A stretch of 64,000 nt of DNA, taken from contig VRUD01000002.1 in the NCBI GenBank assembly GCA_019456305.1, positions 20,118 through 84,117 on the forward strand, written 5' to 3'. A model generated the notes under the pieces. The model worked only from the letters and a program-made list of their open reading frames with translations. It did no database searches and was not told where the DNA came from. A program made the position numbers and the translations under genes. Within the stretch, counting starts at the first letter, position 1. Each line of letters starts with the position of its first letter. This document shows positions 5,652 through 53,410 of the stretch, in pieces. Source of the stretch: Cytophagales bacterium (GTDB taxonomy: Bacteria; Bacteroidota; Bacteroidia; Cytophagales; VRUD01).

Positions 5652-6020
5652 TCCGATGCAAATATACGAATTTATACTAATGACACGAATAGGGTATAAT
5701 GCTAATATACTAATTAAATATAAAATACTTAAAATGCCTAAAATTTATGCCACAAAAACTCTAAAATCACTAAACCCCCACACCAAAATATACAATTTTA
5801 TATTTACATTATTTATCTTAGAGTTTTGGTGTGTGGGTAAATCACACAAAATTTTTTAGTGAAATTTCGTGTTTTTGTGCTTTAGTGGCGATTTTTTTAT
5901 TTTAGGCATTTTAAATTTTACATTTTAGGCATTTTTTTTATTAGTATCATTAGTCCCGAGTACTCGGGATTAGCATTTTATACTAGTATCATTAGTATTC
6001 ATTCGTATATTGGCATCGGT
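5652..6020. repeat. Composite nested inverted-repeat region (MITE-like)
   Basis: Terminal arms ccgatgcaaatatacgaat.. (5652) and ..attcgtatattggcatcgg (6020) are about 80% complementary over 38 nt. The inner part holds gccacaaaaac/ttttgtgc-type arms and a central CCCGAGTACTCGGG (5955..5968). Confidence 0.75.
5659..5666 (-). promoter_or_regulatory. -7 box TATATTTG carried inside the CCGATGCAAATATACGAA repeat
   Basis: 17 nt upstream of the hydrolase ATG (5642). Confidence 0.45.
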
Positions 6021-18418: not shown

Positions 18419-18519
18419 GGTCCCGCCTGAGGCGGGACCAAAAAGCAGTTGGCAATTAATGCAATAAGTCAGAAGAATCAGGACAATTGCCAACTGCCCA
18501 TTGCTCCCGAGTACTCGGG
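18419..18519. repeat. Cluster of three different hairpin modules
   Basis: ggtcccgcc-tga-ggcgggacc (18419..18439). cagttggcaatt...aattgccaactg. CCCGAGTACTCGGG (18506..18519). Confidence 0.8.
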
Positions 18520-26076: not shown

Positions 26077-29000
26077 ATGAAAAACAAAACATCCATACAC
26101 CCTCCAATCTTTGGCGAATTGCACCTGGCACTATGTGCTATACGCTTTGCGTTTTGCGTTCAACTCTTCTTCAAATTAATCCTGGTATTGCTGCTTAGCA
26201 CAGCCTTGTCTATTGCCTACTGTCAACTGTCAACTTCTTCATGGCAAGCCCTCTACGATAGCTCAGATGTATATTATTACAAAGGTGATTATCTAAAAGC
26301 TGCAGAGTTTCTGCAGCTTGCATTGCCTTTGGCTGAAAGTGAATTTGGTAAAGATTCAGCATACGCATTGACTGTTAATGACCTGGCTTTATGTTATCAT
26401 GAATTGGGAAAATATTCTGTAGCCAACACTTTATACCTGCAAGCTTTAGACATCTACAAAATCCAATTAGGTGAAAACCATCCTTCTTATGCCGCTACAA
26501 TAGTCAATATTGGTATGGTTTATAAAGATATGGGTCAATACATCAAAGCTGAAAAATTATACTTACAATCAAAAAAAATATATAAAACCACGCTGGGTGA
26601 AAATCATCCTGAATATGCCCTGGTACTCAATAACCTGGCAACACTTTATTCTTATATGGGTAAATATATAGATGTAGAAACACTACTTTTAGAATCCCTG
26701 AAAATAAAGAAAAAACACTTAGGTGAAAGCCATCCTGATTATGCAAGTTCCATCAACAACCTGGCACTTCTATACAATACGATTGGTCATTACAGCAAAG
26801 CTGAAGAATTATATTTACAATCATTAAAAATAATTAAAAATCTATTAGGAGACAACCATCCTAAGATTATAAGACCCCTTTACAACCTGGCAATTCTTTA
26901 TACTAATATGGGCCGGTATAGCAAAGCTAAAAACTTGTTTTTAAAAGCATTGAATATAGTCAAAACCCATTTAGGGATTTACCATCCTGATTATGCAGGT
27001 ATACTCCTGTCTCAAGCAGATAGTTATAAAAAAATGGGTCGCTACAGTGAAGCAGAAAAATTATATTTAGAAGCCATGGAAATATTTAAAACCCGGTTAG
27101 AAGAAAACACTCCGGTTTATGCTATTTGTCTTAACAGCCTGTCAGGGTTATATCATACCCTTGGCAGGTATAAAGAAGCAGAACAATTAGATCTGAAAGC
27201 TTTAAAAATATTTAAAACCCGGTTAGGAGAAAACCATCCTAATTATGCAAGTTCTCTCTTGTCTCTGGCAAATGGTTATAAAACAACAGGCCGCTATAGT
27301 AAAGCAGAAAAATTATATTTAGAAGCAAATAATATTGTTAAAAACCATTTTGGAACAAACCATCCTGATTATGCAGTTTCCCTCAGTAATCTTGTAAGTG
27401 TATATGAGAAAATGGGAGAATATAGAAAAGCTGAAATGTACTATCAACCTTTAATGTATAAATATCTTTACCATATCCATGTTTATTTCCCCTCTATGAA
27501 TGAAAAAGAAAAAGGAGCATTTTATGAAACGATCAAGGGTGAGTTTGAGAAGTTTTATGGATTTGCATTTTCAACCTCCAAATTCCGTACAGCTGAAAAA
27601 GAAAGGGAATTACTTGCAAATGTGTACAATTATCGCCTTTCAACCAAGGCCCTTTTATTTAACGCAACAAATAAAGTACGTCAGCGGATCTTGGGCAGCA
27701 ATGATAGTACGCTTATCCAAAAATACAGACAATGGCGTTCTGACAAAGATTATCTCGGTAAGCTTTATACGCTAAGCATAGCTGAAGTAAAAAAACAAAG
27801 TGTAAGTATAGATTCTTTAGAAGCGCAAGCCAATTTGCTGGAAAAGGAATTGTCTAAAAATTCTCAATTATTTGCAAAGGAATTTGATAAAAAAATTTAC
27901 GACTGGAAGGACGTACAGGCACAATTGAAAGAAGATGAGGCGGCTGTGGAGGTAATACGATTCAGAAAATATGGTACTATTGTAGAAAAAATTTCTTTTA
28001 GAGACACTATTTACCATGTCCAAAAAGATGGCTTTACAGAAAAAGTTTATTATGCAGTCCTGATCTTAACAACTAACGAACTAAAGTTCGTAGTACTGGA
28101 AAATGGCAAAGAATTAGAAAAAAAATACCTCAATAATTATAAAAATTCTATTAAGTTTAAGGCATCAGATAAAGACAGCTATGAGCAATACTGGTCAAAA
28201 ATTGCTGAAGCACTGAAAGGCATAAATAAAGTCTGGTTTTCACCCGATGGGGTTTACAACCAGATCAACCTGGCTACGCTGCAAAATCCCGAATCAGGTA
28301 AATTTCTTATAGAGGAAATGGATGTGCAGTTGGTTACCAACACAAAAGACCTGGTAGATGATAAAAACTTCCGAGGTTTTCAAAACCTCGGAGGTTTAGT
28401 CCCTGAAAAAACTGCCTCGCTTTACGGCTACATCAACTACCAAAACACAGGCATGCAAATACTACCCGGAACTAAAAAAGAAGTATCCATGATTGACTCA
28501 TTGTTAAAATTAAATAAGCGGAAAAGTAAAATCTACCAATGGAATGCAGCTACTGAAGATGCCATTAAATCCGAACAAAGCCCTACCATCTTACACATCG
28601 CTACACACGGTTACTTTCTTTCAGATAATGAGATCTCGGGAAGAAATATTTTTGGGATTGATTCGATCTACTATGTGATGAATCCGTTGTTGAAGTCAGG
28701 GTTGATTTTTAGCAGCTCCTCTCTGACTTCCCCGAGTACTCAGGGGAGAACCGGCAAACCCCTATCCCCTACAGGAGGGAAAGGGGATGGCAAAGTCTCC
28801 CCACGTAGGGATTTAGGGGGTGGCGGCAAAATGGCTGGAGTTCTTACCGCCTACGAGGCAATGAACCTCAACCTCGACAATACAGAATTGGTAGTATTGA
28901 GCGCATGTGAAACAGGCCTCGGTGAAGTACAACATGGTGAAGGCGTTTACGGCTTACAGCGCGCCTTGCAGACAGCAGGTGCAAGATCGGTGATCATGTC

Positions 29001-29193
29001 TCTGTGGAAAGTGAACGACCAAACCACGCAGGAACTAATGATTTCGTTTTATTCCAAATGGCTGCAGGTCGAAGATCCAGACGCAGTCGGGGGAGGAGAT
29101 AAGCATAAAGCATTTAAACAAGCGCAATTAGAACTTAAAGAAAAGTATAAACATCCTTATTATTGGGGGGCGTTTGTGATGGTTGGGAACTAA
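26077..29193 (+). CDS. TPR (KLC-type, about 10 units) plus CHAT-domain protein
   Basis: 1038 aa. Repeats 'LNNLATLYSYMGKY..AE.LYL.SLKI.K..LGENHPDYA'. CHAT dyad 'ILHIATHGYF' and 'LVVLSACETGLG', then 'YYWGAFVMVGN'. A repeat-encoded insert sits between the His and Cys. Confidence 0.9.
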   Translation: MKNKTSIHPPIFGELHLALCAIRFAFCVQLFFKLILVLLLSTALSIAYCQLSTSSWQALYDSSDVYYYKGDYLKAAEFLQLALPLAESEFGKDSAYALTVNDLALCYHELGKYSVANTLYLQALDIYKIQLGENHPSYAATIVNIGMVYKDMGQYIKAEKLYLQSKKIYKTTLGENHPEYALVLNNLATLYSYMGKYIDVETLLLESLKIKKKHLGESHPDYASSINNLALLYNTIGHYSKAEELYLQSLKIIKNLLGDNHPKIIRPLYNLAILYTNMGRYSKAKNLFLKALNIVKTHLGIYHPDYAGILLSQADSYKKMGRYSEAEKLYLEAMEIFKTRLEENTPVYAICLNSLSGLYHTLGRYKEAEQLDLKALKIFKTRLGENHPNYASSLLSLANGYKTTGRYSKAEKLYLEANNIVKNHFGTNHPDYAVSLSNLVSVYEKMGEYRKAEMYYQPLMYKYLYHIHVYFPSMNEKEKGAFYETIKGEFEKFYGFAFSTSKFRTAEKERELLANVYNYRLSTKALLFNATNKVRQRILGSNDSTLIQKYRQWRSDKDYLGKLYTLSIAEVKKQSVSIDSLEAQANLLEKELSKNSQLFAKEFDKKIYDWKDVQAQLKEDEAAVEVIRFRKYGTIVEKISFRDTIYHVQKDGFTEKVYYAVLILTTNELKFVVLENGKELEKKYLNNYKNSIKFKASDKDSYEQYWSKIAEALKGINKVWFSPDGVYNQINLATLQNPESGKFLIEEMDVQLVTNTKDLVDDKNFRGFQNLGGLVPEKTASLYGYINYQNTGMQILPGTKKEVSMIDSLLKLNKRKSKIYQWNAATEDAIKSEQSPTILHIATHGYFLSDNEISGRNIFGIDSIYYVMNPLLKSGLIFSSSSLTSPSTQGRTGKPLSPTGGKGDGKVSPRRDLGGGGKMAGVLTAYEAMNLNLDNTELVVLSACETGLGEVQHGEGVYGLQRALQTAGARSVIMSLWKVNDQTTQELMISFYSKWLQVEDPDAVGGGDKHKAFKQAQLELKEKYKHPYYWGAFVMVGN

Positions 29194-32241: not shown

Positions 32242-32362
32242 AAGTCGGCAGTTGGCAGTCGGCAATCTACAGTCCCCAGTCGGCAAAAAACAATTGCCGA
32301 CTGCTCCCGAGTACTCGGGATGGACTGCCGACTGCCGGCTGGAGACTGTCGACTGCCGACTT
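32242..32362. repeat. Long hairpin built from GCCGACT/GCCAACT heptamer arrays with a central CCCGAGTACTCGGG
   Basis: aagtcggcagttggcagtcggcaatctacagtccccagtcggcaa ... ttgccgactg ctCCCGAGTACTCGGGat ggactgccgactgccggctggagactgtcgactgccgactt. Confidence 0.8.
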
Positions 32363-41111: not shown

Positions 41112-43889
41112 TCAAACTATATCATCATCCTGCTTTTTATTTTTCAGATCCCTGCCTCTTAAATATCTCCTCAAAAACAACTGCACCGGCAGCAAGGTTG
41201 AAGCCAGTACCAAATTTAACAAGGTTTTGATGATAGGAGCGCTTCCAACATATTCTTCGTACAAAGGTTCGCACAAATTTTGGATAAATTCAAAAATAAC
41301 GAATAATGTGATATACACCATTATAGTGACTGTTCTGCCTTTACTGCCTTTACGGCTTGCTAATAAAGTACCTCCTATCAAAAGCATAAAAAACAGCAAC
41401 TGTGCGCTGTAGAACCAGCCAGTTTCCCAATAAGGCGGGGTAATAGTAATTGCAACAAAGATCCCATTTTGCCAAATGCCGTCATTATTGGAAGCTTTGA
41501 CCTTAAAAACATAATCGCCAGGGTCAATGTTTGTGTATTTTGCAATTCTGTTGCCGGCATCGCAATAGGTCCAGTCCTTGTCAAAATCTGCCAGCTTGTA
41601 GGCATATTGATTTTTCAGGGGGTCTGTAAAATCAAGTGCAGCAAATTCAAAGACGAAATTATTTTCATCATAGCTTAGCGTAACATTATTATTTTCATTG
41701 AGATCTTTAACAATTTGCCTGTTTTTAACTTTAAATTTTGTAATGGCGATGGGGGGTAGGTGTGGGTTGTCCACTACACTATCAGGATGAAAGATGTTAA
41801 ATCCGTGCATGCCTCCAAACACCATCTCACCTGTTTTTAATTTGCAATGTGCCTTGGTAAATTCGTTGTTCTGTAATCCGTCAGATTCGGTATAGATTCG
41901 AAAGGTTTCTCTTTCGGTGTCAAACTTCACAAGACCTTTATCAGTGCTTATCCATAGATAGCCGTGATCATCTTCCAGCATGCCTCCGATATTATTGCCG
42001 GGCAGTCCGTTTTCTGTTGTATAATGGCTGAAATTTCTTTTTTCTTTATTGAACTTGTTTAACCCATTGCTACCAATCCATACAATACCTCTGCTGTCTT
42101 CAAAAATTACAGTTATCGCATCACCCCCACCCCAAAATGTCGTTGAATCATGGGGTTTGTAAATAAAATGTTCTACTTCATCGTTTTCAAGGTTCATGCG
42201 GCATAATTTTCCATCAGTGGTGCCAACCCAAAGGTAACCTTTGCTGTCTTCATATATTTTTTTTGATAAACTATACAGGTAAGATAATTCATGAAGTTGT
42301 TTTTGGTAATATTTGCCTTTTTGTTTATCAAACAATTTTACACCCTGATTTCCCCATATTCCAACCCAAAAATTACCTTTGCTGTCTTCAAATAGATCAT
42401 GTATCCAGTCATAGTTATTATTATATATGAAAAAGCTATCGTTTTTTTTATCATACCTGAGCAATCCGTTGTTAGCTGCCCACAAACCAACCCACATAGT
42501 GCCGGATCTATCTTTATAAATCACTTGAACTTGATCTCTTTTGGTGTTAGCCGTATTAAACCGGTAATTTTTAAAAGTTCCATTTTTGCGGTCAAATACG
42601 TCCAGTCCTTTATCTTCCGTTCCGATCCACAGATTTCCATCATCATCTTCTATTATTGTTCTTATCCTGTTTGATGAAAGGGAATTATTATCTCCAACAA
42701 TATGCCTGTAATGTTTAAATTTGTACTTGTTCCTGCTGTATTTGCTGATGCCCTGGCCGGTTCCAATCCAAATATTTCCAGCTCTGTCTTCGTATATTTT
42801 ATTGATAGTATTATCAATTAGTGAACCCGGATCATTTTGATTATGTGGAGTGAATAATAGCTTGTTTTTTAAAACATCATACCTACAAACTCCTTCTTCT
42901 CTCATATAACCACCAAACCAGATCAATCCACGCCTATCTTCAATTATATCATACACTGGTCCGACAGGGAATTTTTGAAAATCCTGACGTTTAGGAAAGT
43001 GTTTGAAAAAATCAGGTCGATTTGCCAGATATGTATACCAATGTTGATCCCCAAGCCAGAGGTTTCCATAACGATCATTTAAAATACAACTTAAACATCC
43101 ACCTTTAATACCGGGAATTTCTTTGCTGCCCCTCTCATATATTTTCATTGTTTCCTCATCTCTATCAAATTTTATAAGACCAATACCACAACTCACGATC
43201 CACAAATTACCTCCCTTGTCTTCGTATATTTGATGTGCAGGATAATTTGGATGTCTATACTCACTGCCATGTTCAAAATGTTTAAACCTTGTTCCGAGCC
43301 CCGCCAAAGGCGGGGAGGGATCTCTTTTTTTATCACTAGTTCCTTTATTAACAGATCCTTTGCTGTCGCTCAGGACAAGCTTATTCAACACCCCATCTGC
43401 GGTCTCAATCCATAGTATTCCGCTTTTGTCGGCATAGATTTCCCTTACATAGTTATCGCTTAAGCTATTTTTATTATCCACATCATGGAAATAGTTAATG
43501 AACAGCTCATTGTTCCTGTCGTATTTATTCAGTCCTTTAAGAGTACCAATCCATAAATTACCGTAAATATCTTCTGTGATGGAAGAAATATAGTTGTCAG
43601 AGATCGTAGTGGAATCATGTGGTTTGTTAGTGTAAATTTGAAACTGGTATCCATCATACTTATTTAATCCTTCATAGGTTCCGATCCACAAAAACCCATA
43701 TTTATCCTGGAAGATATCTAATATCTCATTGTTGCTTAATCCGTCTGCTGTAGTGAGATTATCGAACTTTGATTGGGTGTCTTTTATTTTAATTACTTTG
43801 AACCTGTTACTGGAGTGATTGTAGGTTTGGGCTGTAATTTTTTCTCCCCAAAAAATGCCTGCAAGGATAAGTAGTGTGTTGATTTTCAT
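41112..43889 (-). CDS. Reg_prop/Y_Y_Y sensor paralog A ending in the conserved 3-TM module
   Basis: 925 aa. Signal peptide, many 'DGL.NN.I..I.ED..GN.WIGT..GL.K(Y/F)' blades, Y_Y_Y 'NNFVFEFAALDFT..NQYAYKL..FDKDW'. The C-terminus is 'WFYSAQLLFFMLLIGGTLLASRKG..FEFIQNLCEPLYEEYVGSAPIIKTLLNLVLASTLLPVQLFLRRYLRG'. Confidence 0.9.
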   Translation of the reverse strand: MKINTLLILAGIFWGEKITAQTYNHSSNRFKVIKIKDTQSKFDNLTTADGLSNNEILDIFQDKYGFLWIGTYEGLNKYDGYQFQIYTNKPHDSTTISDNYISSITEDIYGNLWIGTLKGLNKYDRNNELFINYFHDVDNKNSLSDNYVREIYADKSGILWIETADGVLNKLVLSDSKGSVNKGTSDKKRDPSPPLAGLGTRFKHFEHGSEYRHPNYPAHQIYEDKGGNLWIVSCGIGLIKFDRDEETMKIYERGSKEIPGIKGGCLSCILNDRYGNLWLGDQHWYTYLANRPDFFKHFPKRQDFQKFPVGPVYDIIEDRRGLIWFGGYMREEGVCRYDVLKNKLLFTPHNQNDPGSLIDNTINKIYEDRAGNIWIGTGQGISKYSRNKYKFKHYRHIVGDNNSLSSNRIRTIIEDDDGNLWIGTEDKGLDVFDRKNGTFKNYRFNTANTKRDQVQVIYKDRSGTMWVGLWAANNGLLRYDKKNDSFFIYNNNYDWIHDLFEDSKGNFWVGIWGNQGVKLFDKQKGKYYQKQLHELSYLYSLSKKIYEDSKGYLWVGTTDGKLCRMNLENDEVEHFIYKPHDSTTFWGGGDAITVIFEDSRGIVWIGSNGLNKFNKEKRNFSHYTTENGLPGNNIGGMLEDDHGYLWISTDKGLVKFDTERETFRIYTESDGLQNNEFTKAHCKLKTGEMVFGGMHGFNIFHPDSVVDNPHLPPIAITKFKVKNRQIVKDLNENNNVTLSYDENNFVFEFAALDFTDPLKNQYAYKLADFDKDWTYCDAGNRIAKYTNIDPGDYVFKVKASNNDGIWQNGIFVAITITPPYWETGWFYSAQLLFFMLLIGGTLLASRKGSKGRTVTIMVYITLFVIFEFIQNLCEPLYEEYVGSAPIIKTLLNLVLASTLLPVQLFLRRYLRGRDLKNKKQDDDIV

Positions 43890-43996
43890 AATGGAATATA
43901 CTTCAGAACATTCACCCTATGGAATTACCAATAGATCGGGAAGCGAAGCTATTCTACAGGGTAAATGTTTGCGTTTTAGCGATTTACAAAATCGCT

Positions 43997-46663
43997 TTAC
44001 ATCAATTCCCCTTTATCCTTTCCTTTCTGCTGTTTACCTCTCAGATATTTCCTCAAAAACAACTGCACCGGCAGCAAAGTTGAAGCCAGTACCAAATTTA
44101 ACAAGGTTTTGATGATAGGAGCGCTTCCAACATATTCTTCGTACAAAGGTTCACATAAATTTTGGATAAACTCAAAGATCACAAACAAACAGATATAAAC
44201 GAGTATGGTGATTGTGCGTGTTCCGGCACCTTTACGGCTGGCAATCAAGGTGCCTCCGATGAGCGCCATGAAGAACAGCAGCTCGGCGCTGTAAAACCAC
44301 CAGGATTGCCAGTAAGGTGGTTTGATGGTGAAGAAAAAGGTTGTAGGTTTCCAATTCCAAACACCATCATTATTGCAGGCGATAACCTTGAATGTGTATT
44401 TTCCCGGATTAAGGTTGGAGTATGTGAAGTGTGTTTCCTGAGTTTCGGATGACCATTTTTCATCAAATCCTTTAAGCTGATAACGGTAATGCACTTTTTC
44501 AGGTATGGTCAGAGAGATACCTATGTATTCGAAGGTGAGATGGTTTTTGTTGTAGGGTAGCACTAAACCAATTGGCATGCCGCTGTTTACAGAATCACAG
44601 TAAGGATGCCAATCTTCTTCACCTGAGAAGAGTTTTATTGCAGTAATATGTGTTAAGGGCTCAATTGTATTGGGTATATCTGCATTGGGATTGTATTTTA
44701 CTGCGCCTTTAGTAGTACCAAACCATAAATTTCCTTTTTTATCAATGCAGATATTAGACCCACATTCGGTCCCCCTGAAACCCTCTTGTATACCATAATG
44801 TTTAAATTTTTTCTTGCCTGTTTTGTTGTAAAGGGCTACATCAAATTTATTAATCCCTCTACCGGTAGCAGCCCATAAATTTCCGCTACGGTCAAAAATT
44901 AGTGATGCGATGATGTCATTGCTTAAGCCATCTTGAGTTGTAAAGCTGTCAATAACTTCTAAAGTTTTTTTATGATGAAATTTGCATTTAAAAATACCTT
45001 CTCCGTCAGTTCCAAACCACAGATTGCCTTGCAGGTCCTGGGTGATACTAAATACTGCTTTATAAGTGAAACTTTCATTTGCAGAAATGTTTTTAATAGT
45101 ATCCCCATTAAATACATTGACGCCACCACCATAGGTTCCGAACCACATATTGTAAGATATGTCTTCATAGATGCATAAAATTCTATTCGGATTTCTGCCA
45201 CCTTCCACTCTAAAATACTCTTTCTTTTTTCCGTCATATCTATATGCTCCGGCACCTCCTGAGCCAAACCACATATTACCTGAATGATCCTCATAAACAC
45301 ACATCCAGCCATTGAAAGGAACGCTAATCAATTCATTGTTATGAAATTGAAAACCTCCTGTTCTCGCCATATCATGCGAAAACCATATATCTCCGTTTTT
45401 ATCCTCTGCAACGGAAGTAATTCTGCTAATGGGCAAACCCTCTATTGAAGTAAAATTTGTAAACCCGCTATTGTCAGCACTTAAAGAATCGGGGCTATAC
45501 TTACTGATCCCCCCTTCGGTCGCGAACCAACTATTACCATTACGGTCTTCAATAATCCCATTGATCGTATTATTTACCAATCCAACTTCTTCATTATAAT
45601 AAGTAAACTTTTCGCCATTATATTTACAAACGTCACTGCCAAAAGTTCCAATCCAGATATTTCCTTCCCTATCATGTAATATTGACCACGTGGAATTAAT
45701 AGGGAGTCCCTGCTTTGTTGTAAAGTTGGTAAAAACCTTACCGTCATATTTGAATATTCCTCTTTCAAATGTTGCAATCCAGATATTGCCTTCAACATCT
45801 TTTGTCAACCCGATCATTGGAGAACCAAGTGCAAAACTTGTGATGTTATCTCCATCATGCCCATGTGGGTCAAATTTTTTTATGCTTCCACTCCAGGACA
45901 CACACCAAATACTACCATCATCATCTTCAACAATTCCAAAGCTTGCTGCAATTGAGCTTACCTTAATAACAGTATCACCCGTTGTTCCTTTCGGATCATA
46001 TTTAAAAAGTCCGCCACGCAATGCTCCAAACCACAGATTATCCTCATTATCCTGCATCATTGCACCGATCACGTTGCTTTTATATTTGCTGTTGATCTGA
46101 TAATTTTTAAATAAAATTGTATCAACCCCGCCTGTTTGCGGGGCTGAGTCTTTTTGATCAATGGTAGAACCTTGCGAATAATATGAAATAAGCTTGTTTG
46201 TGCCAACCCATAAATTTCCATCTTTATCTACAAGCAATGACCTGACGAAATTATAGGGTAATCCATTTTTAGTTGTATAAGCAGTAAATTTTGTACCATC
46301 AAATTTACTTAAGCCATTTGTTGTACCGAACCACATATTCCCATCATGATCTTCAGCAATAGAAAGTACCCTGTAATTGAGCAAGCCGGCTTTATCCGTA
46401 AAATTTTTAAAAGTTTTACCGTCAAACCGGCTCACACCGCCATGGGTGCCAAACCAGATGTAGCCCCTGCTGTCCTGGTACATGCATTCAATGGCTGATT
46501 GCACCAGGCCGTTTTCTACGGTGTAATAGGAAAAGTTATGCTGCCCTTCTGCTGGGCGGACAGATTGAGCCCATGATTCAAGATTAAAAATTGTTGAACA
46601 AAGCAAAATCCCGATGATAATCTGGAAAAATAGGAGAATGGATATGATTTGTAATTTTTTCAT
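43997..46663 (-). CDS. Reg_prop/Y_Y_Y sensor paralog B ending in the conserved 3-TM module
   Basis: 888 aa with the same architecture. Y_Y_Y 'NHLTFEYIGISLTIPEKVHYRYQLKGFDEKW'. C-terminal module as in paralog A. Confidence 0.9.
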   Translation of the reverse strand: MKKLQIISILLFFQIIIGILLCSTIFNLESWAQSVRPAEGQHNFSYYTVENGLVQSAIECMYQDSRGYIWFGTHGGVSRFDGKTFKNFTDKAGLLNYRVLSIAEDHDGNMWFGTTNGLSKFDGTKFTAYTTKNGLPYNFVRSLLVDKDGNLWVGTNKLISYYSQGSTIDQKDSAPQTGGVDTILFKNYQINSKYKSNVIGAMMQDNEDNLWFGALRGGLFKYDPKGTTGDTVIKVSSIAASFGIVEDDDGSIWCVSWSGSIKKFDPHGHDGDNITSFALGSPMIGLTKDVEGNIWIATFERGIFKYDGKVFTNFTTKQGLPINSTWSILHDREGNIWIGTFGSDVCKYNGEKFTYYNEEVGLVNNTINGIIEDRNGNSWFATEGGISKYSPDSLSADNSGFTNFTSIEGLPISRITSVAEDKNGDIWFSHDMARTGGFQFHNNELISVPFNGWMCVYEDHSGNMWFGSGGAGAYRYDGKKKEYFRVEGGRNPNRILCIYEDISYNMWFGTYGGGVNVFNGDTIKNISANESFTYKAVFSITQDLQGNLWFGTDGEGIFKCKFHHKKTLEVIDSFTTQDGLSNDIIASLIFDRSGNLWAATGRGINKFDVALYNKTGKKKFKHYGIQEGFRGTECGSNICIDKKGNLWFGTTKGAVKYNPNADIPNTIEPLTHITAIKLFSGEEDWHPYCDSVNSGMPIGLVLPYNKNHLTFEYIGISLTIPEKVHYRYQLKGFDEKWSSETQETHFTYSNLNPGKYTFKVIACNNDGVWNWKPTTFFFTIKPPYWQSWWFYSAELLFFMALIGGTLIASRKGAGTRTITILVYICLFVIFEFIQNLCEPLYEEYVGSAPIIKTLLNLVLASTLLPVQLFLRKYLRGKQQKGKDKGELM

Positions 46664-46798
46664 CCTGCTTAAATTTTAATGACTGTCCGTTTGTTTATAC
46701 CTATCTGTTTTATTTAGCGCATGACTGCATGCATCCATCCCGAGTACTCGGGAATCATGCTAAGTATAGTTATTAGGTATAACAAAGCGGATAACCAT

Positions 46799-49700
46799 TT
46801 AAATTTTAATCCCAATAACCAACACATCATCTATCTGCTCCTCATTGCCTTTCCATTTTTCAAAGGTAATATCTAATTTTTCACGCTGCTGTTCCATTGA
46901 AAGATCCTGTATTTCAAGGATAAGCTCTTTGAATCGTTTGTAGGAAAACTTTCTTCCTTCAGAGCCACCAAATTGATCAGCATAGCCATCTGAAAACAGG
47001 TAGATGCTGTCCCCTTTTTTTAAATTAATGGTATGGTCTGTAAAAATTTTTGTTCTGCCCCTGCTATCTGTTTCGCCCACCTTATCAATGCCAATCGGAA
47101 AACTGTTGCCTTTGACCTCACACAGATCATCACCAAAGGTGCGGACTTTATCATTATGCCCCAAGTCCCCCAGCTCGTGGATGATGTTTTTTCTAATTAT
47201 GTATAAAGGATTGTAAGCGCCAGCATATTGTAGTGAACGGGCATGCCCGTTCACTACACCTATACTGCAAATAGCAATATCCATCCCATCTTTTGTTTCA
47301 GAGCCCTCACCTGTTTGTTTTAAGGCATTCACAATACCATCATTGAGCTCTCCCAATATCTTTGCCGGTTGGTTAATTTTCCTTTTATTTATTATTTCAT
47401 TTAACAGGTCATTGCCTATCATGCTCATAAAGGCCCCGGGCACGCCATGGCCGGTGCAATCAACTGCCGCTATAATAAAAGAGGCCCCCCTATCAGTCCC
47501 CCCTAAATCCCCCCCAAAGGGGGGGACTTTGCCATCGCTTTTGCCTTGGGGAAGGGTAGAGTGTTGGCCAGTTCTCCCCCCTTTGGGGGGAGTTAGAGGG
47601 GGGCTGATGGGGCTGCTAAACCAATAAAAATCTCCACTCACAATATCCTTTGGCTTAAACAAAATGAATGACTGCGGAAAAACTTTATTGACCACATCAA
47701 CAGGAGGGAGAATAGCTTCTTGTATCAACTTTGCATAATTGATGCTATCTGTAATATCCTTATTCCTTTGTTCAATAACTTCATTGGTCTGAGCAATTTC
47801 CTCATTCAAAAAGTTTAACTCTTCATTCGTTATTTTCAATTCATCTCTTTGTACCGTTAATTCTTCTTTTTGCATTAGTATTTCCTCTTTCTGCGTCATA
47901 ACTTCAGCAGTACGTATTTTCACTTGATGCTCTAACTTCTTTTTTGCCTTTTGTAAATTTCTCACACGCCAACTATAAAAACCATAAATACTGCTCCCAC
48001 CGGTAATAAAACATAGCATATAAAACAATAAGGTTTGCCAAAAAGGAGGGGTGATGATAAAACTAAAAGTGGTTGGCTTTTTATTCCAGACTCCATCATT
48101 ATTACATGCTTTTACTTTTAGGATGTATTTTCCGGGCGGAATATTGGAATAGGTTACTTCATTTTTTTTTGTAATTGGCGACCAGTGTTGATCAAACCCG
48201 TCTAATATCCACTGATATCGCACTTTTTCCGGAATTTTAGTACTGATCCCGACAAAATCAAAAGTAAGATGATTTTGATTGTAGGATAGTTTCAAATTCA
48301 AGGGTAAAGCAAACCAGGGAGAAAAGCTATCAATCTGATAGTGGGAGCGCCATTTTGCACTGTTTACTTCTTCAAAAAACAGTTTTATTCCTGTAATGTA
48401 TGTTCTTGCCTCAACCATATTAGGCTTATCTTCTTTAGGGGAATATTTGTTGACGTCATTCACTGTACCAAACCACAGATTTCCTTTTGAGTCTCTGTAA
48501 ACAGCATTATTATTACACTCAACGCCCCTGAATCCATCTAATATAGAATATTGTTTAATTTTATAAGAGCCATTACTACTATCCGGGATAATTTTGTTGA
48601 TCCCGTTATTTGTCCCTGCCCAGATATTTCCCTCATCATCAACTATGAGGGAAACAATTGCGGCATTGGTTAAGCCGTCTTTAGTAGTAATATAAGACCA
48701 TGAATTATCAGGATGCAATATTGAAATCCCCTCGCCATAAGTGCCAAACCAACTATTTTGATAATTATCTTCAATAATTGATATAACACGGTGGTCGCTT
48801 AAACCTTCAATAAATTTTCCTACTAAATTGGGTAAGTTTTTTTTAAATTTCTTCACATGCTCCTTTTTAATAAAATGCGTGAATTTTTCGTTGGAAATAT
48901 CATCACTTGCTTTGTTGAGCAAACTTACACCTTCGCTCGTACCAAGCCATATTCTTCCTTTGCTGTCTTCATAAATTTTATTAACAGTGTTCCCAATGAT
49001 CCCTGTTTGAGTGTTATAATTAATAAATGAACCGGGTTTGTTTGAAAGGGAGTATTCCGGATTCAAGTATAAAAATTTAACAGCGCCTCCTCCTTCAGTA
49101 CCTACCCATAAATTTCCCCTGCTATCCACGAGCATTGAAAATATGTGATCGCTTGTCAGCCCATCAAGTTCAATACAGTTTTTGTTTCCATCGGCACAGG
49201 ATTTTTTTCTTTTATAAATTAGAAACTTATTCCCCGGTGTGGTGATGTCTTTTTCAATTAATTTATTGATACCTCCTCCTAAGGTACCAATCCAAATATC
49301 TCCGTTCTTATCATCAACAATAGCATGGACAACGCTTTCACCGATTCCCTGATCCCATGAATATTGTGTAAAATTGTTTCCATCAAAATTAAATACACCG
49401 CCACCCCAGTTGCCAAACCACATTTGCCCATATTTGTCTTCATGAATGGAAACCGCTGATTTAATGTTTAGATAGGTAAAAATCTTACCACTAAACATAG
49501 AAGCTCCACCGCTATATCCACCAAACCAAAGATTACCCTCACGGTCTTCCATAATAGAAATGATATGGTTATTACATAAACCTTGCCCCTCGTGATACCG
49601 TAAAATAGCGCCGGTTTGGGGATCATATTTTTCTACACCAAAACCGTCATGACCGAACCAGATATTACCTGCCTTGTCTTCAAAAATATCCCAGACACGG

Positions 49701-50584
49701 TTGGTACTTAGGGCATCCTGTAATGGAAAAGGTAAAAAGGAAACTTTACTAAACCTTTGAGGTTTAGTAAAGTTATTATTCAAAGAATCAATATTACTGC
49801 TTTTATAAAAATTAATACTTTCTTCAGGTAAATATGAAATCCCCCCTCTCCAACTGCTGACCCAGATATTTCCCTTTTTGTCTGGGAGTATGGCTCTTAC
49901 AAAATTATTGCTTAAACCCTGTTGTCGTGTAAAGTGTATGAAATCCGGATTAGCCACTTCATTTTGATAATAATCTGCTAATAAAAGATTTATTCCCCCA
50001 CCCCAGGTGCCAAACCAAATATTTTGATTCATATCTTTAACAATGGTGTTGACATAGCTATTGCTCAAGCCTTCATTTTTAGTATAATTTGTGATCTTAA
50101 AAGTATCTTTTGGGAATGTAGTATGGTTGGCAGTCAGCACACTAACACCTGCCGGTGTTCCAATCCAGATATTTCCACTTTTATCATTAAGTAGGGCAAG
50201 GGCAGTATTATCAACCAAACCAAACTCAGTAGTGATATTCTTAAAAACTTTTCCATCAAAGATGCTTACACCTCCATCTGTCCCAAGCCACATACGCCCT
50301 TTGTTGTCTTCAATAATTGCATAAACAAAGTTATTGGCAAGGCCATCATCAGTTGTAAAGTTTTTAAAAGAAACACCATCATAGCTGCTGACACCACCTT
50401 CTGTTGCAAACCAGATGTATCCCCTGCTGTCTTCATACATTGCATTTACCTGCGACTGTGCCAGGCCATTTTCAACCGTAAAATTTTTGAAGTTGTATTG
50501 CTGTGCAGAGCAGTAAGCAGTACGCAGTATGCAATAAGCAATTAACAGAGCAAGATAAATTGTAGGAACGATATTTCTTAGCAT
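46799..50584 (-). CDS. Reg_prop/Y_Y_Y sensor paralog C with one TM, a coiled coil and a SpoIIE/PP2C phosphatase domain
   Basis: 1261 aa. Y_Y_Y 'NHLTFDFVGISTKIPEKVRYQWILDGFDQHW'. TM 'LLFYMLCFITGGSSIYGFYSW'. Heptad-rich linker. PP2C 'SGDFYWF','AAVDCTGHGVPGAFMSM','DGMDIAIC','FSDGYADQFGG'. Confidence 0.9.
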   Translation of the reverse strand: MLRNIVPTIYLALLIAYCILRTAYCSAQQYNFKNFTVENGLAQSQVNAMYEDSRGYIWFATEGGVSSYDGVSFKNFTTDDGLANNFVYAIIEDNKGRMWLGTDGGVSIFDGKVFKNITTEFGLVDNTALALLNDKSGNIWIGTPAGVSVLTANHTTFPKDTFKITNYTKNEGLSNSYVNTIVKDMNQNIWFGTWGGGINLLLADYYQNEVANPDFIHFTRQQGLSNNFVRAILPDKKGNIWVSSWRGGISYLPEESINFYKSSNIDSLNNNFTKPQRFSKVSFLPFPLQDALSTNRVWDIFEDKAGNIWFGHDGFGVEKYDPQTGAILRYHEGQGLCNNHIISIMEDREGNLWFGGYSGGASMFSGKIFTYLNIKSAVSIHEDKYGQMWFGNWGGGVFNFDGNNFTQYSWDQGIGESVVHAIVDDKNGDIWIGTLGGGINKLIEKDITTPGNKFLIYKRKKSCADGNKNCIELDGLTSDHIFSMLVDSRGNLWVGTEGGGAVKFLYLNPEYSLSNKPGSFINYNTQTGIIGNTVNKIYEDSKGRIWLGTSEGVSLLNKASDDISNEKFTHFIKKEHVKKFKKNLPNLVGKFIEGLSDHRVISIIEDNYQNSWFGTYGEGISILHPDNSWSYITTKDGLTNAAIVSLIVDDEGNIWAGTNNGINKIIPDSSNGSYKIKQYSILDGFRGVECNNNAVYRDSKGNLWFGTVNDVNKYSPKEDKPNMVEARTYITGIKLFFEEVNSAKWRSHYQIDSFSPWFALPLNLKLSYNQNHLTFDFVGISTKIPEKVRYQWILDGFDQHWSPITKKNEVTYSNIPPGKYILKVKACNNDGVWNKKPTTFSFIITPPFWQTLLFYMLCFITGGSSIYGFYSWRVRNLQKAKKKLEHQVKIRTAEVMTQKEEILMQKEELTVQRDELKITNEELNFLNEEIAQTNEVIEQRNKDITDSINYAKLIQEAILPPVDVVNKVFPQSFILFKPKDIVSGDFYWFSSPISPPLTPPKGGRTGQHSTLPQGKSDGKVPPFGGDLGGTDRGASFIIAAVDCTGHGVPGAFMSMIGNDLLNEIINKRKINQPAKILGELNDGIVNALKQTGEGSETKDGMDIAICSIGVVNGHARSLQYAGAYNPLYIIRKNIIHELGDLGHNDKVRTFGDDLCEVKGNSFPIGIDKVGETDSRGRTKIFTDHTINLKKGDSIYLFSDGYADQFGGSEGRKFSYKRFKELILEIQDLSMEQQREKLDITFEKWKGNEEQIDDVLVIGIKI

Positions 50585-50623
50585 ATTTGTAAATTTAGAA
50601 CCATGGATATATGAAAAATCAAT

Positions 50624-53410
50624 CTACACCAACCCATCTTCAACTCCTCCTTGTTTTTTCTCTTTACCTCTCAGATATTTCCTCAAAAACAACTGCACAG
50701 GCAGCAAAGTTGAAGCCAGTATCAAATTTAAAAAAGTCTTTATGATAGGAGCGCTGCCGACATATTCTTCATATAAAGGTTCGCACAAATTCTGAATAAA
50801 CTCAAAGATCATAAACAAACAAATATAAACCAGGATAGTAACGGTCCGGTCTTTTACTCCTCTGCGCCTGGCTAATAATGTTCCGCCAATTAAAAGCATA
50901 AAAAACAGCAGTTGGGCGCTGTAAAACCAGCCTGTTTCCCAGTATGGTGGTTTGACTATGAAGGAAAAGGTGGTGGGTTCTTTGTTCCAAACACCGTCAT
51001 TATTGCATGCTTTTACCTTTATCGTGTATTTACCTGGAGGAATATTGGAATAAGTGGCAATATGTTCCTTTCCGGGAGGGGACCAGGCATTGTCCATTCC
51101 TTCCAGCTTGTATTGGTATTTTACTTTTTCAGGGATGGTTAAACTGATACCAACAAAATTAAAAGTTAAATGATTTTTGTAGTAGGGAAGTTTCAGATTA
51201 AAAGGTAACCCAGTATTTGCATGAATACTATCAGAAAAGTTTAAATAGTTAAAATCTTTTAAAAAAAGCCTAATCCTGGTAATATGTGTTTTCGGTTGGT
51301 TGGTATTTATTTTGTCTTTTCGGGGATCAAATTTTGTAATTCCCTTAACAGTTCCAAACCATAAATTGCCTTTTGTATCACTAAAGATGGAATTGCATTC
51401 AATACCTGTAAATCCTTCTAATTTGCCATAATGCTTAATTTCAATTTCACCTGTAGTGTTAAACTTATTGATATTAAATCTGTCAATACCTTTATTTGTA
51501 CCGGCCCAAAGATACCCCACTTCATCTATTACCATCGAAATAACACTATTGGAACTTAAGCCATCGGCTTGCATAATGGTTTGAAAATATTTACCATCTT
51601 TTCTTTCATCATTATATTTGCTTACACCACCTCCTAAAACACCAAACCAGACGTTACCTTCATTATCTTCCTGTATCGTTGTAACAATTGTACCTTCTAA
51701 ACCTAAATTGTCTTTTTTAGTAAAACCTTTCATAGTTTTACCGTCATATTTATTTATTCCACCATATGAAGCCATCCAAACATTTCCTTTACTATCAACT
51801 AATATATCATTTATATATCTTTGAACTAACCCATCATTTAAAGTAAAATTAGTAAACATGGGAGGGGATCCCTCGCTGTCGCCCAGGACAAGCTTTGAAA
51901 CGCCACCATTTGTTCCAATCCACAAACACCCTTCACTGTCTTCGTCAATTGAAATAATTCTGTTAGTGATCATTCCGTCATCTCTTGTAAAAATGGTCAA
52001 TTCATTAAATTCTTTTTTAGGATCATACTTGCATAGCCCTGCCGGTGTGCCTATCCAGATATTGCCTTTCCTATCCTTAAGCAAAACAGTGACAACATTG
52101 ACCGGTAATCCTTCATTTGTAGTATAATTTGTAAAAGTTAGAGAGGAGCTAAGCTTACTCAACCCGCCTTCAGTAGCAAACCAGATATTTCCATCCTGAT
52201 CTTCTGTGAATGAACTTACTTTATGATTTATGATACCATCTTTTTCATAATAATGAGTAAACGCATCCCCACTGAATTTGCATAAACCACTTCCACTTGT
52301 CCCTATCCAGATGTTGCCTTCATTATCTTCGAGTAAGCTTCTTACAGAATTTCCGCTTAATCCATTTTCCTCCCTGTAATTTTTAAATCCTACACCCGAT
52401 TTTAAATCGGATGTACCAGCACGATCGTATTTGCTAACACCACCATTACAGCCAAACCAAAGATTTCCCACTTCATCTTCAATTATAGTAAGCACCATAT
52501 TACCTGCCAATCCATCTGCTACAGAATAATGTTCAAAATTTTTGCCATTATAATAACTCACCCCTGTATAATAGTCGCCCATCCAAATAGACCCTTTGTT
52601 ATCTTCAAGCAGAGCACAAATAAATCTGTGTTCAAGGCCTTGTTGTGTGGTAAAAGTTTCAATATTTTTGCCTGCCTCGCCCGCCTGCCATGTTTGGGCT
52701 TTGCCTTTGGAATGTACAGACGCCCAATTTGGGCGTCTCTTGTCGGGGAGCGTATCAGGGTAATTATACCTGAATAAACTTGATTTTACCCCAAACCATA
52801 TATTATTGTTTTTATCCTGCATCACTGCCCAGACCTGGCTTTCTTCCAAATTATTTTTTTTACTGAAATTTGTGAATTCCTTTCCATTGTAAGTACAGAT
52901 GCCTTTGGTGGTGGCTAACCATAACACGCCCTTGTGATCTTCTATTATTTTTAATATGATGTTACTATTTAAACCATCTTTTACGGTATAATTAATAAAG
53001 TACAGACGCCCAATTTGGGCGTCTCTGTTAACATCATCATTCTTTTCTTCACCAGAACTGCCACTGCTACTGCCTTTATATTTCCCCAATCCACCGCTGT
53101 CCATGCCAATCCAGATATTTCCTTTTGAATCTTCCATGATTGAATAAATACGATCATTACCCAATCCGTCTTTTGAAGTGAAAATAACGAAATTAGTACC
53201 ATCAAAGCGACATAAACCGCCTCCGTAAGTTCCAATCCATAAATAACCTTTACTGTCCTGCAATAATGCATAGACCTGAGATTGCGGTAATCCATTTTCT
53301 ATGGTATACCAGGAAAAGTTGTATTGTTGAGCAGTGCAGTGAGCAGTACGCAGTATACAATAAGCAATTAACAGAGCAAGATAAATTGCAGGAACGATAT
53401 TTCTTAGCAT
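50624..53410 (-). CDS. Reg_prop/Y_Y_Y sensor paralog D ending in the conserved 3-TM module
   Basis: 928 aa. Y_Y_Y 'NHLTFNFVGISLTIPEKVKYQYKLEGMDNAW'. C-terminal module as in A and B. At least four repeat-encoded inserts. Confidence 0.9.
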   Translation of the reverse strand: MLRNIVPAIYLALLIAYCILRTAHCTAQQYNFSWYTIENGLPQSQVYALLQDSKGYLWIGTYGGGLCRFDGTNFVIFTSKDGLGNDRIYSIMEDSKGNIWIGMDSGGLGKYKGSSSGSSGEEKNDDVNRDAQIGRLYFINYTVKDGLNSNIILKIIEDHKGVLWLATTKGICTYNGKEFTNFSKKNNLEESQVWAVMQDKNNNIWFGVKSSLFRYNYPDTLPDKRRPNWASVHSKGKAQTWQAGEAGKNIETFTTQQGLEHRFICALLEDNKGSIWMGDYYTGVSYYNGKNFEHYSVADGLAGNMVLTIIEDEVGNLWFGCNGGVSKYDRAGTSDLKSGVGFKNYREENGLSGNSVRSLLEDNEGNIWIGTSGSGLCKFSGDAFTHYYEKDGIINHKVSSFTEDQDGNIWFATEGGLSKLSSSLTFTNYTTNEGLPVNVVTVLLKDRKGNIWIGTPAGLCKYDPKKEFNELTIFTRDDGMITNRIISIDEDSEGCLWIGTNGGVSKLVLGDSEGSPPMFTNFTLNDGLVQRYINDILVDSKGNVWMASYGGINKYDGKTMKGFTKKDNLGLEGTIVTTIQEDNEGNVWFGVLGGGVSKYNDERKDGKYFQTIMQADGLSSNSVISMVIDEVGYLWAGTNKGIDRFNINKFNTTGEIEIKHYGKLEGFTGIECNSIFSDTKGNLWFGTVKGITKFDPRKDKINTNQPKTHITRIRLFLKDFNYLNFSDSIHANTGLPFNLKLPYYKNHLTFNFVGISLTIPEKVKYQYKLEGMDNAWSPPGKEHIATYSNIPPGKYTIKVKACNNDGVWNKEPTTFSFIVKPPYWETGWFYSAQLLFFMLLIGGTLLARRRGVKDRTVTILVYICLFMIFEFIQNLCEPLYEEYVGSAPIIKTFLNLILASTLLPVQLFLRKYLRGKEKKQGGVEDGLV

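Follow-up and report, generated by a model that had tools for sequence, protein, structure and literature searches.

A GC-rich palindromic hairpin repeat carried in frame by the PP2C and CHAT domains of two Cytophagales proteins

Small palindromic repeats that enter coding sequence have been described in several bacterial settings. In the passages cited here, RPEs are presented as palindromic repeats of ~100-150 bp lying in frame in many unrelated Rickettsia genes (Ogata et al. 2000, 2002; PMC10969869, PMC3733652), with a conserved peptide, fold-compatible positions and no transposase of their own (PMC10969869, PMC3733652). REP doublets are represented by REPINs (Bertels and Rainey 2011, PMC3116915) and by head-to-head REP dimers (Di Nocera et al. 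2013, PMC3733652); intragenic REP dimers encode 20-30 aa, and clusters 43-82 aa (Di Nocera et al. 2013, PMC3733652). The 2013 survey assigned GTAG-type REPs to Proteobacteria, Cyanobacteria, Chloroflexi and the PVC group, and the REPs of Bacteroidetes to the CGTC type only (PMC3733652). Bacterial MITEs with in-frame insertions include the Coxiella QMITEs (PMC5896051) as well as ERIC and BOX (review PMC10969869).

The element described here occurs twice in the window, i.e., the whole 64-kb stretch of DNA that was analysed, a sequence from a metagenome-assembled genome (MAG). An earlier note on this DNA, all of whose quoted strings are present where it had placed them, claimed that the same repeat lies in a PP2C and a CHAT domain. 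Formal local alignment upholds the claim: the two segments align with a score of 58, against 14.9±2.2 (maximum 24) for shuffled sequences, and significantly in one relative orientation only, which establishes them as two copies of one ~110-nt GC-rich palindromic repeat. The copies and the genes that carry them are:

47498..47606 (-): copy A, subfamily A, with the core common to all copies; nhmmer 106 bits, E 1e-31
28713..28821 (+): copy B, subfamily B, diverged; nhmmer 98 bits, E 5e-29
46799..50584 (-): host gene A, 1261 aa, with 11 Reg_prop repeats, Y_Y_Y and a SpoIIE (PP2C) phosphatase domain (Pfam)
26077..29193 (+): host gene B, 1038 aa, with TPR repeats and a CHAT caspase-like protease domain (Pfam)

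Both copies contain the blocks GGGGAGAACnGGCnAAC, GATGGCAAAGTC and GGGATTTAGGGGG. Exact occurrences of GATGGCAAAGTC in the window number exactly two, one in each copy, and a nucleotide profile of the element, run over the 64 kb, likewise recovered exactly two full-length copies, with more in metagenome contigs. Copy B is 68-74% identical to the other copies. The GC content of copies A and B (0.62 and 0.59) in genes of 0.38 is a foreign composition.

The element is a doublet: a spacer separates two C-run/loop/G-run hairpin modules that are inverted relative to each other, and an outer C-run/G-run pair encloses both modules and the spacer. Each module consists of a conserved flank, a C-run/loop/G-run stem and an outward-facing flank with TTAG. 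The hairpins noticed earlier are present; they had been described as flanking the shared blocks, but they belong to the element itself and are not flanking sequence. Its parts are as follows:

47563..47603 (-): copy A left arm, read directly, with outer C-run, TCTAACT, the hairpin CCCCCC-AAA-GGGGGG and AGAACTGGCCAAC
47537..47562 (-): copy A spacer ACTCTACCCTTCCCCAAGGCAAAAGC, which defines subfamily A in the alignment of full-length copies
47498..47536 (-): copy A right arm, with GATGGCAAAGT, CCCCCCC-TTT-GGGGGGG and ATTTAGGGGGG, a widespread hairpin module
47485..47613 (-): copy A, extended outward by further palindromic sequence (GCCCCATCAG ... CTGATAGGGGGG)
28713..28759 (+): copy B left arm, hairpin TCCCC-GAGTACTCA-GGGGA, with a GAGTACTC palindrome in its loop
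28786..28820 (+): copy B right-arm module, GATGGCAAAGTC TCCCCACGTAGGG ATTTAGGGGG, whose stem has decayed

The left arm of copy A is an imperfect reverse complement of its right arm, and the copy forms an imperfect palindrome of 126 nt (47488-47613; self against reverse complement 84, shuffles 18.7±4.0) with a predicted fold of -86 kcal/mol. Pairing in the right-arm stem is established by covariation across loci: 95.1% of cells are paired and both sides have changed in 5 of 10 pairs, a level reached by none of 500 shuffles, and the signal vanishes when the partners are slid. The compensatory changes yield CCCCCC/GGGGGG, CCCC/GGGG and CCCTCTCC/GGAGAGGG. The TTAG tag stands two bases from the stem (stem-AT-TTAG-GGGG, stem-AG-TTAG-AGGGG). 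The ends of the element, AGCCCCCCTCTAA... and ...TTTAGGGGGGCT, are terminal inverted repeats bounding ~110 nt without coding capacity of its own, and the copies differ mainly in the length of the C/G runs and loops (C7TTTG7, C6TTTG6, C6TTCGG6).

Copy A lies in frame in the SpoIIE/PP2C domain of host A (PF07228, 56.8 bits, above the gathering score), at about residues 991-1033, and copy B lies in frame in the CHAT domain of host B (PF12770, 194.7 bits, above the gathering score), at about residues 880-921; both open reading frames are intact. The host B protein has exactly the sequence of MBW8048867.1, an entry from a Cytophagales MAG whose assembly also holds MBW8050263.1. The inserts sit exactly where they had been placed before, between GDFYWF and DCTGHG in the PP2C domain and between HIATHG and LSACETG in the CHAT domain. 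The comparison with insert-free homologues suggested in the earlier note is informative: the GDFYWF..DCTGHG span measures 24 residues in 84 of 120 homologues and 64 in host A, and the ATHGYF..LSACETG span has a mode of 83 residues among homologues and measures 106 in host B. The PP2C loop is variable in length, with some insertion there in ~15 of the 120 homologues; most homologues have neither insert, and copies A and B are, as judged from these alignments, true insertions. Three other comparisons were set aside: the insert of the closest SpoIIE homologue (P0001) scores within the shuffle range and was rejected as a decayed copy, that of P0003 is not palindromic, and the neighbouring paralogues, lacking a SpoIIE domain, were rejected as insert-free comparators. 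The PP2C loop that carries copy A here holds, in another bacterium (L020), a palindrome that is not this element.

All residues that are invariant across 67-68 homologues are kept in both hosts (among them D56, D113, GHG, D270, D274, D323 and D324 in PP2C; H155 and C255 in CHAT). AlphaFold models retain both host folds (host A, pLDDT 87.9 and TM 0.87 to 6k4e; host B, pLDDT 82.8, with TPR-CHAT proteins and separase as fold matches) and place the inserts as low-confidence coil between well-predicted strands; in the solved PP2C structure 6k4e, the site equivalent to copy A is a 3-residue turn. The inserts are accordingly predicted by the models to occupy loops, at sites that fit the host fold. 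The encoded peptides are Pro/Gly-rich, ~40 residues long and predicted to be disordered (e.g., GGRTGQHSTLPQGK). With frames intact and invariant residues kept, the proposal that such loops are tolerated holds. Their placement 'inside enzyme cores' is correct for the sequence, where they lie between catalytic motifs, but not for the fold, where they form low-confidence coil in the models and where the site of copy A corresponds, in 6k4e, to the 3-residue turn.

Beyond the window, the profile brought the number of full-length copies to at least eight. Further in-frame copies were found in genes for DUF4907, glycosyltransferase (GT2, GT-like), ArsC/LMWPc, UPRTase-like and TPR proteins and a permease, and those in unrelated genes of related metagenome contigs mostly show 90-99% identity over the matched stretch. 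Copy A is 96-99% identical to L014, L015 and L016 over BLAST-matched stretches and 83% identical to L013 at the DNA level; its core is 96% identical to L015 and 93% to L019. Multiple near-identical copies in unrelated genes are thereby established at the level of sequence, and they suggest recent activity. The ArsC copy probably stems from the same MAG as the window; in L018, an independent assembly, the ArsC domain runs on in frame on both sides of the insert. The carriers P0242, P0245 and P0250 resemble fusions of unrelated genes at the element and may be assembly chimeras.

Shorter relatives lie outside genes, on 25 plasmid records from Cyanobacteria and in MAGs of Bacteroidota; among the annotated cyanobacterial plasmid records listed, none has an annotated feature under the match. 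Solo modules are intergenic. In the ~76 kb attributable to the window organism, 3/3 copies are intragenic, which would be unusual for REP-type repeats, though n is only 3. Since most of the extra copies came from protein searches, which detect genic, open-frame copies only, the genic fraction and the frame bias are not estimable. Pattern scans of reference genomes and metagenomes gave few matches, and L003 (the same sequence as L007), L009 and L011 were discarded as chance matches lacking the hairpin. Rfam, at curated and permissive thresholds, returned no family, only sub-threshold miRNA-like hairpin matches on both strands; the element matches no intron or ribozyme family and has no match in the phage collection, and literature searches with exact motif strings led to unrelated eukaryotic sequences only.

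Copies A and B are read in the same element frame, as had been observed before, but the observation carries little weight because only 2-3 of the 6 frames are open in the element, and surviving genic copies are confined to those. Copy B is open in the used frame only, and the permease copy uses the other open frame. Among the genic copies examined at the DNA level, the frame is open through the element in all but the L015 permease, which is frameshifted and reads on in a different frame beyond the element, the outcome that undirected insertion would predict; L016 ends shortly after it. Adaptation to coding through unusually few stops was rejected, since shuffled sequence is about as free of stops (2.12±1.12 open frames, against 3 in the element; P=0.36). 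The GRAVY of the encoded peptide is -0.98 (hydrophilic) in the +2 frame and +0.12 in the -2 frame, and the hydrophilic +2 frame is the one seen most often.

A single transposase gene is present in the window:

15850..16311 (-): IS200-like Y1 transposase gene (PF01797, E 1e-21)

Eight copies show no shared flank and no sign of a target-site duplication, which is weak evidence, as both the termini and the absence of a duplication were judged from the flanks only. Because of this, and by analogy with REPINs, a Y1 (IS200/RAYT-class) enzyme would be the most plausible mobiliser. The Y1 gene of the window is a candidate at the class level only: it scores 64 bits with the NCBIfam IS200 model and 22 bits with REP_Tyr_transpos, against a cut-off of 80, and both it and its Bernardetia homologue are flanked by hairpins of a different, unrelated family, so that its role as the actual mobiliser is unsupported. 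None of the element-carrying loci contains a Y1 gene, and neither the window nor the loci contain a parent insertion sequence with matching ends.

We consider it probable that the element is a mobile repeat of REP-doublet/RPE-like type, non-autonomous and tolerated where loops are permissive; the family is new, but its kind is already known. The inserts would be translated as neutral passengers, and we infer that the element spread by transposition in trans. The short-spacer relatives in cyanobacterial plasmids and Bacteroidota MAGs would be ordinary extragenic repeats, from which a long-spacer derivative would have multiplied recently in this Cytophagales lineage and reached many sites, genes among them. 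Genic copies would then persist only where the added length preserves the reading frame, where translation falls in one of the 2-3 stop-free frames, and where a loop accepts a floppy, Pro/Gly-rich peptide of ~40 residues; the β-hairpin turn of PP2C and the His-Cys loop of CHAT may be such sites.

A more ambitious version is unlikely. It posits a hairpin-doublet family across Cyanobacteria and Bacteroidota, without a recognisable dedicated transposase, whose long-spacer Cytophagales derivative moved into coding loops and there serves as an evolvability device, generating disordered loops and a slippage on/off switch (6-8-nt C/G runs) in signalling and surface-related genes. Slightly less likely still is exaptation, in which the repeat-encoded loops are functional (regulatory or interaction) additions or the 6-8-nt homopolymer runs act as slippage switches for phase variation, by which the signalling enzymes would be turned on and off. 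Variation chiefly in C/G run and loop length, the one genic copy that is out of frame across the element, the open used frame of copy B despite its divergence (68-74%) and the fact that both window hosts are signalling proteins would all suit this reading. Homopolymer differences between metagenome contigs may, however, be sequencing errors; the host proteins have no function in common (phosphatase, protease, ArsC, glycosyltransferases, permease, DUF), the insert peptides are predicted to be disordered, and open frames are not enriched in the element. The idea of the earlier note that the loops are 'exploited' is unsupported, given disordered Pro/Gly-rich peptides, unrelated hosts, a frameshifted copy and no depletion of stops.

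Mis-assembly of the MAG could have joined the repeat into genes, and P0242, P0245 and P0250 do seem chimeric at the element, but each host domain resumes beyond the insert in the same frame and keeps register with its homologues, each window host domain folds as one domain, and ArsC in the independent assembly L018 is likewise continuous, which leaves this reading very little probability. Ribosomes are reported to bypass GC-rich palindromic inserts within certain mitochondrial genes of yeast, and the insert might similarly be present in DNA and mRNA and absent from the protein, through bypass of the hairpin or excision at the RNA level. The great predicted stability of the hairpin (-86 kcal/mol) and the L015 permease, which is in another frame after the element, agree with such skipping; an open frame, for which skipping would leave no need, is nevertheless kept through the element by the genic copies besides L015 that were examined at the DNA level, no intron or ribozyme family matches, and the chance is just as slim. 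That the segments are not mobile DNA at all, being ancient lineage-specific loops or convergent low-complexity Pro/Gly coding sequence, can practically be dismissed, for although PP2C loop length varies (~15/120 homologues with some insertion), this is already contradicted by 90-99% nucleotide identity across unrelated genes, a palindromic structure without coding purpose, segments of ~0.6 GC in 0.38-GC genes, the same architecture in non-coding DNA of other phyla and the unrelated insert of the closest homologue.

Accounts of in-frame palindromic repeats usually treat them as a Rickettsia peculiarity ("selfish DNA inside genes"), together with scattered intragenic REPs. The repeat described here adds a clean case in a new setting, a Cytophagales MAG, with a visible origin in a family that is extragenic in Cyanobacteria. 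It also provides a natural map of permissive sites, as one β-turn of PP2C has independently taken two unrelated palindromes. Such inserts inflate and fragment protein families, make chimeric ORFs in metagenome assemblies and can mimic novel domains. If the mobilising enzyme is found, it will bear on how tag-bearing hairpin repeats spread without a dedicated transposase.

Among known systems, the small dispersed repeats of Cyanobacteria that Elhai and colleagues reportedly described in 2008 are said to be mobile hairpin repeats of very small size that have spread widely among Nostoc and its relatives. Our element is likewise a very small, probably mobile hairpin repeat, a likeness of description rather than of sequence, and the compact doublet on the 25 cyanobacterial plasmid records could belong to one of those families or to none of them. 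With MITEs the element shares small size, non-autonomy, dispersal, inverted ends and occasional in-frame fusion to host ORFs; unlike them, it has no visible target-site duplication and lacks, in the window and loci, a parent insertion sequence whose ends match, and each of its ends forms a hairpin, as REP ends do, instead of being a plain terminal inverted repeat.

REP doublets are closer in architecture: in both, two inverted short GC-rich hairpins with a 20-100 bp spacer form a larger hairpin, with compensatory stem changes, an outward-facing tag near the stem, singlets besides doublets, and extragenic relatives. The element differs in its tag, TTAG, which is neither GTAG nor a degenerate form given in PMC3733652, in that no RAYT flanked by it was found in the window and element loci, as would be expected of a REPIN, and in that every copy seen in the Cytophagales lineage is intragenic. 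From RPEs it is set apart by tag and host rather than by direct alignment, and it is probably unrelated to them in sequence: the terminal tag given for RPEs is CGTC (PMC3733652), and the ends of the element bear TTAG (...ATTTAGGGGGG and CCCCCCTCTAACT...) and no CGTC; its host is a Cytophagales of free-living type, whereas that of RPEs is described as an obligate intracellular alphaproteobacterium; and it is built of C-run/G-run hairpins, with extragenic relatives in Cyanobacteria. In its behaviour in genes it nevertheless resembles RPEs, as a dispersed 126-nt imperfect palindrome with at least eight full-length copies, in frame in SpoIIE, CHAT, ArsC, GT2, GT-like, DUF4907 and TPR proteins, with a conserved peptide that aligns and with insertion sites that are predicted by the models to be compatible with the fold.

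The earlier note had reported one C-run/G-run repeat lying in the same frame of a PP2C and a CHAT gene, and the sequences that it quoted for both segments were recovered at their positions. In a MAFFT alignment the segments have the identical long blocks GGGGAGAAC, GATGGCAAAGTC and GGGATTTAGGGGG in common, and the 12-mer GATGGCAAAGTC occurs twice in the 64 kb, only in these segments. Their formal alignment is significant (local score 58 versus 14.9 ± 2.2, maximum 24, in shuffles), in one relative orientation only. When four copies were combined into a nucleotide profile, its full-length matches in the window numbered exactly two:

47498–47606, minus strand: copy A, in a gene with Reg_prop/Y_Y_Y/SpoIIE (PP2C) domains
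28713–28821, plus strand: copy B, in a gene with TPR/CHAT domains

Both lie in frame within long intact ORFs, and the observation of a shared in-frame repeat is confirmed. The CHAT protein is MBW8048867.1 of a Cytophagales MAG. The hexamer TTTAGC, which contains the TTAG tag of the element, directly precedes both copies (28707–28712 and 47615–47620); the six copies from other loci lack this flank, which may be a coincidence.

Comparison with insert-free homologues established that both copies are insertions. The GDFYWF-to-DCTGHG spacing is 24 residues in 84 of 120 SpoIIE homologues and 64 in the window protein, a gain of 40 aa (120 nt) over the usual spacing, and the His-to-Cys span of 120 CHAT homologues has its mode at 83 residues, against 106 in the window protein. 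GC content is 62% in the copy A insert, 59% in the copy B insert and 38% in the host genes. Three neighbouring paralogues, which lack the phosphatase domain, were rejected as comparators for copy A. In the region 41112–53410 (minus strand), four tandem paralogues encode Reg_prop/Y_Y_Y sensor-like proteins. A C-terminal SpoIIE phosphatase domain is confined to the third, and a conserved membrane segment forms the C-terminus of the others.

Copy A is an imperfect palindrome of 126 nt (score against its own reverse complement 84 versus 18.7 ± 4.0), with a predicted hairpin energy of −86 kcal/mol. Its left arm (outer C-run, TCTAACT, CCCCCC-AAA-GGGGGG, AGAACTGGCCAAC) is followed by a 26-nt spacer and a right arm (GATGGCAAAGT, CCCCCCC-TTT-GGGGGGG, ATTTAGGGGGG); TTAG lies two bases from the stem in each arm and faces outward in the doublet. 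The module stems vary in compensating fashion (CCCCCC/GGGGGG, CCCC/GGGG, CCCTCTCC/GGAGAGGG): across 15 arms 95.1% of cells are paired and both sides changed in 5 of 10 pairs, a level reached in 0 of 500 shuffles, and the signal collapses once the partners are slid. The right-arm module also exists as a solo unit. Scans with the pattern GATGGCAAAGTC...GGATTTAGGG, in which a hairpin was not demanded, matched MAGs of Bacteroidota, a Nodosilinea MAG, metagenome contigs and a site upstream of a 16S rRNA gene, and most matches have a clean stem between the flanks. The solo module at locus L001 (140–187), about 80 nt upstream of a 16S rRNA gene, is of the subfamily B type; apart from its rRNA gene this contig is AT-rich, yet it is binned as Solirubrobacterales and may be mis-binned.

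Searches with a concatenated peptide query and, exhaustively, with a profile recovered further proteins carrying the translated element:

P0241: DUF4907 protein
P0244: GT2 protein
P0246 (locus L019): GT-like protein
P0249: ArsC/LMWPc protein
P0248: UPRTase-like protein
P0252: TPR protein
P0251: acidic protein
P0243: amino-acid permease, element read in the opposite orientation
P0242, P0245 and P0250: three apparent fusions

In the last three, the element marks the exact junction of unrelated gene fragments: P0242 (L014) joins an unassigned N-terminal region to a metallophosphoesterase-like C-terminus, P0245 an unknown protein to a SpoIIE C-terminus, and P0250 an RtcB-like N-terminus to a PrmC-like C-terminus. 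These joins are either assembly chimeras or genuine recombination at the repeat.

The element family shows signs of recent activity. Over the matched stretches, DNA identity to copy A is 96–99% in L014, L015 and L016 and 83% in L013, the L019 copy shows 93% identity, and the host genes are unrelated. Two subfamilies are told apart by the spacer, A comprising the PP2C copy and those of L014–L016, L018 and L019, and B the CHAT copy, L013 and the solo module of L001. Most variation among copies concerns the length of homopolymer runs and loops and the tandem 18-nt left-end units, which translate as SPPLTP; no target-site duplication is visible in their flanks. The ArsC carrier MBW8050263.1 probably comes from the same genome as the window CHAT protein, since the organism name is shared and the accession is nearby, and on its contig (L018) the host sequence resumes correctly past the compound insert. 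In this copy (5180–5400) the 18-nt left-end unit stands three times in tandem, the inner hairpin GGGGGGAAAGAAGAAAGGGGGG is duplicated (as it is in L016) and an additional partial arm follows the right end, for a total gain of about 70 aa. P0246 has further odd segments, e.g., QSAECRAQGGKGLERGKRYAPCALHHAL, which look like translations of more repeat families.

Only frames +2 (the one used) and −2 are fully open in copy A, +1 being open except at its end. The 109-nt core has three open frames versus 2.12 ± 1.12 in shuffles (P = 0.36), and the element is therefore not specially stop-free. The +2 peptide is hydrophilic (GRAVY −0.98) and the −2 peptide hydrophobic (GRAVY +0.12, 15 bulky residues), with a membrane permease as the sole instance of the latter. 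In that permease (L015) the frame before the element differs from that after it and a stop lies inside, so a genic copy does not always preserve the gene. Given the open-frame results, the shared frame of the two window copies is expected from selection on undirected insertions.

The SpoIIE-domain model (pLDDT 87.9) places the insert (query residues 62–104) as coil with pLDDT 46–67 between predicted strands 57–61 and 105–115, and the CHAT model (pLDDT 82.8) places its insert (residues ~191–232) as coil with pLDDT 46–49 between predicted strands 185–188 and 233–235. The former matches the solved PP2C structure SiaA (6k4e) with a TM of 0.87; the insert-flanking residues align to chain positions 100 and 104, and the insert thus replaces a 3-residue turn. 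The CHAT model matches TPR-CHAT, separase and SAVED-CHAT structures. All columns invariant across the homologue alignments are kept in the window proteins. The turn occupied by copy A holds an insertion of some kind in about 15 of 120 SpoIIE homologues; that of the closest homologue is unrelated to the element. One of the roughly 15, from another member of Bacteroidota (L020, 1717–1890), has a different in-frame palindromic insert at the same β-turn, with ends GGAGTTGGGAGT.../...ACTCCCAACTCC and the reading ELGVGSSE...RTPNSELPTPHS (self-complement score 44 versus 16.3 ± 4.1; predicted energy −54.7 kcal/mol), which points to colonisation of this loop by several repeat families. Of the proposal that such segments are tolerated, or exploited, inside enzyme cores, toleration in loops is supported; the inserts do not lie in the structural core, and there is no evidence of exploitation.

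Outside genes, the module matches a compact doublet that lies between genes of a Nostoc plasmid. Used as a query, the compact doublet was found at 44 places on 25 cyanobacterial plasmid records (Nostoc, Pseudanabaena, Synechocystis, Anabaena, Kovacikia, Leptolyngbya, Oscillatoria and others), and in none of the annotated records listed does the match overlap an annotated feature. Aligned with the window copies, it has the same architecture and a much shorter inter-hairpin segment. The solo modules of other loci are likewise intergenic. Rfam holds no family matching the element, and its motif strings were not found in the indexed literature. The perfect palindrome CCCGAGTACTCGGG lies at four intergenic sites in the window (5955–5968, 18506–18519, 32306–32319 and 46739–46752), and its core GAGTACTC recurs at 28734, inside the left-arm hairpin of copy B (5 occurrences versus 0.76 expected). 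The palindrome seems to be another short extragenic repeat, distinct from the element. Within an AtuA-family gene (2827–4374, minus strand), positions 3757–3773 hold an in-frame solo hairpin (C8-TC-G7 in the coding orientation) that reads SPPSGG, the peptide motif of the right-arm hairpin in some element copies.

The sole transposase in the window is an IS200-like Y1 enzyme (15850–16311, minus strand), whose score passes the IS200 cut-off and falls far short of the one for RAYT. Its gene is flanked by a hairpin different from that of the element, AAGCCCTGTAGGGGCGAYATTATGG, with two direct copies upstream and two inverted relatives downstream (15752–16469), a REPtron/TIRYT-like layout. The homologue on a Bernardetia plasmid (L027) shows the same 2+2 layout with yet another, GTAG-loop hairpin. 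No Y1 gene was present in any element-carrying locus examined. Because the Y1 flanks differ and element loci lack such genes, Y1-type mobilisation would be only an analogy, drawn from REPINs and the missing duplication.

RPEs are palindromic repeats of about 150 bp found in frame in many Rickettsia genes, and REPINs are doublets of inverted REPs separated by a spacer; in its way of working the element resembles both. The authors of a survey took insertion in unrelated proteins as an argument against functional constraint, and held that flexible loops may be where insertions sit (PMC3733652). The interpretation in the earlier note is partly supported. At the sequence level the element stands outside these families, because it bears the tag TTAG in place of GTAG or CGTC, it has no associated RAYT, and its host phylum is another; it is a new family of an already known kind.
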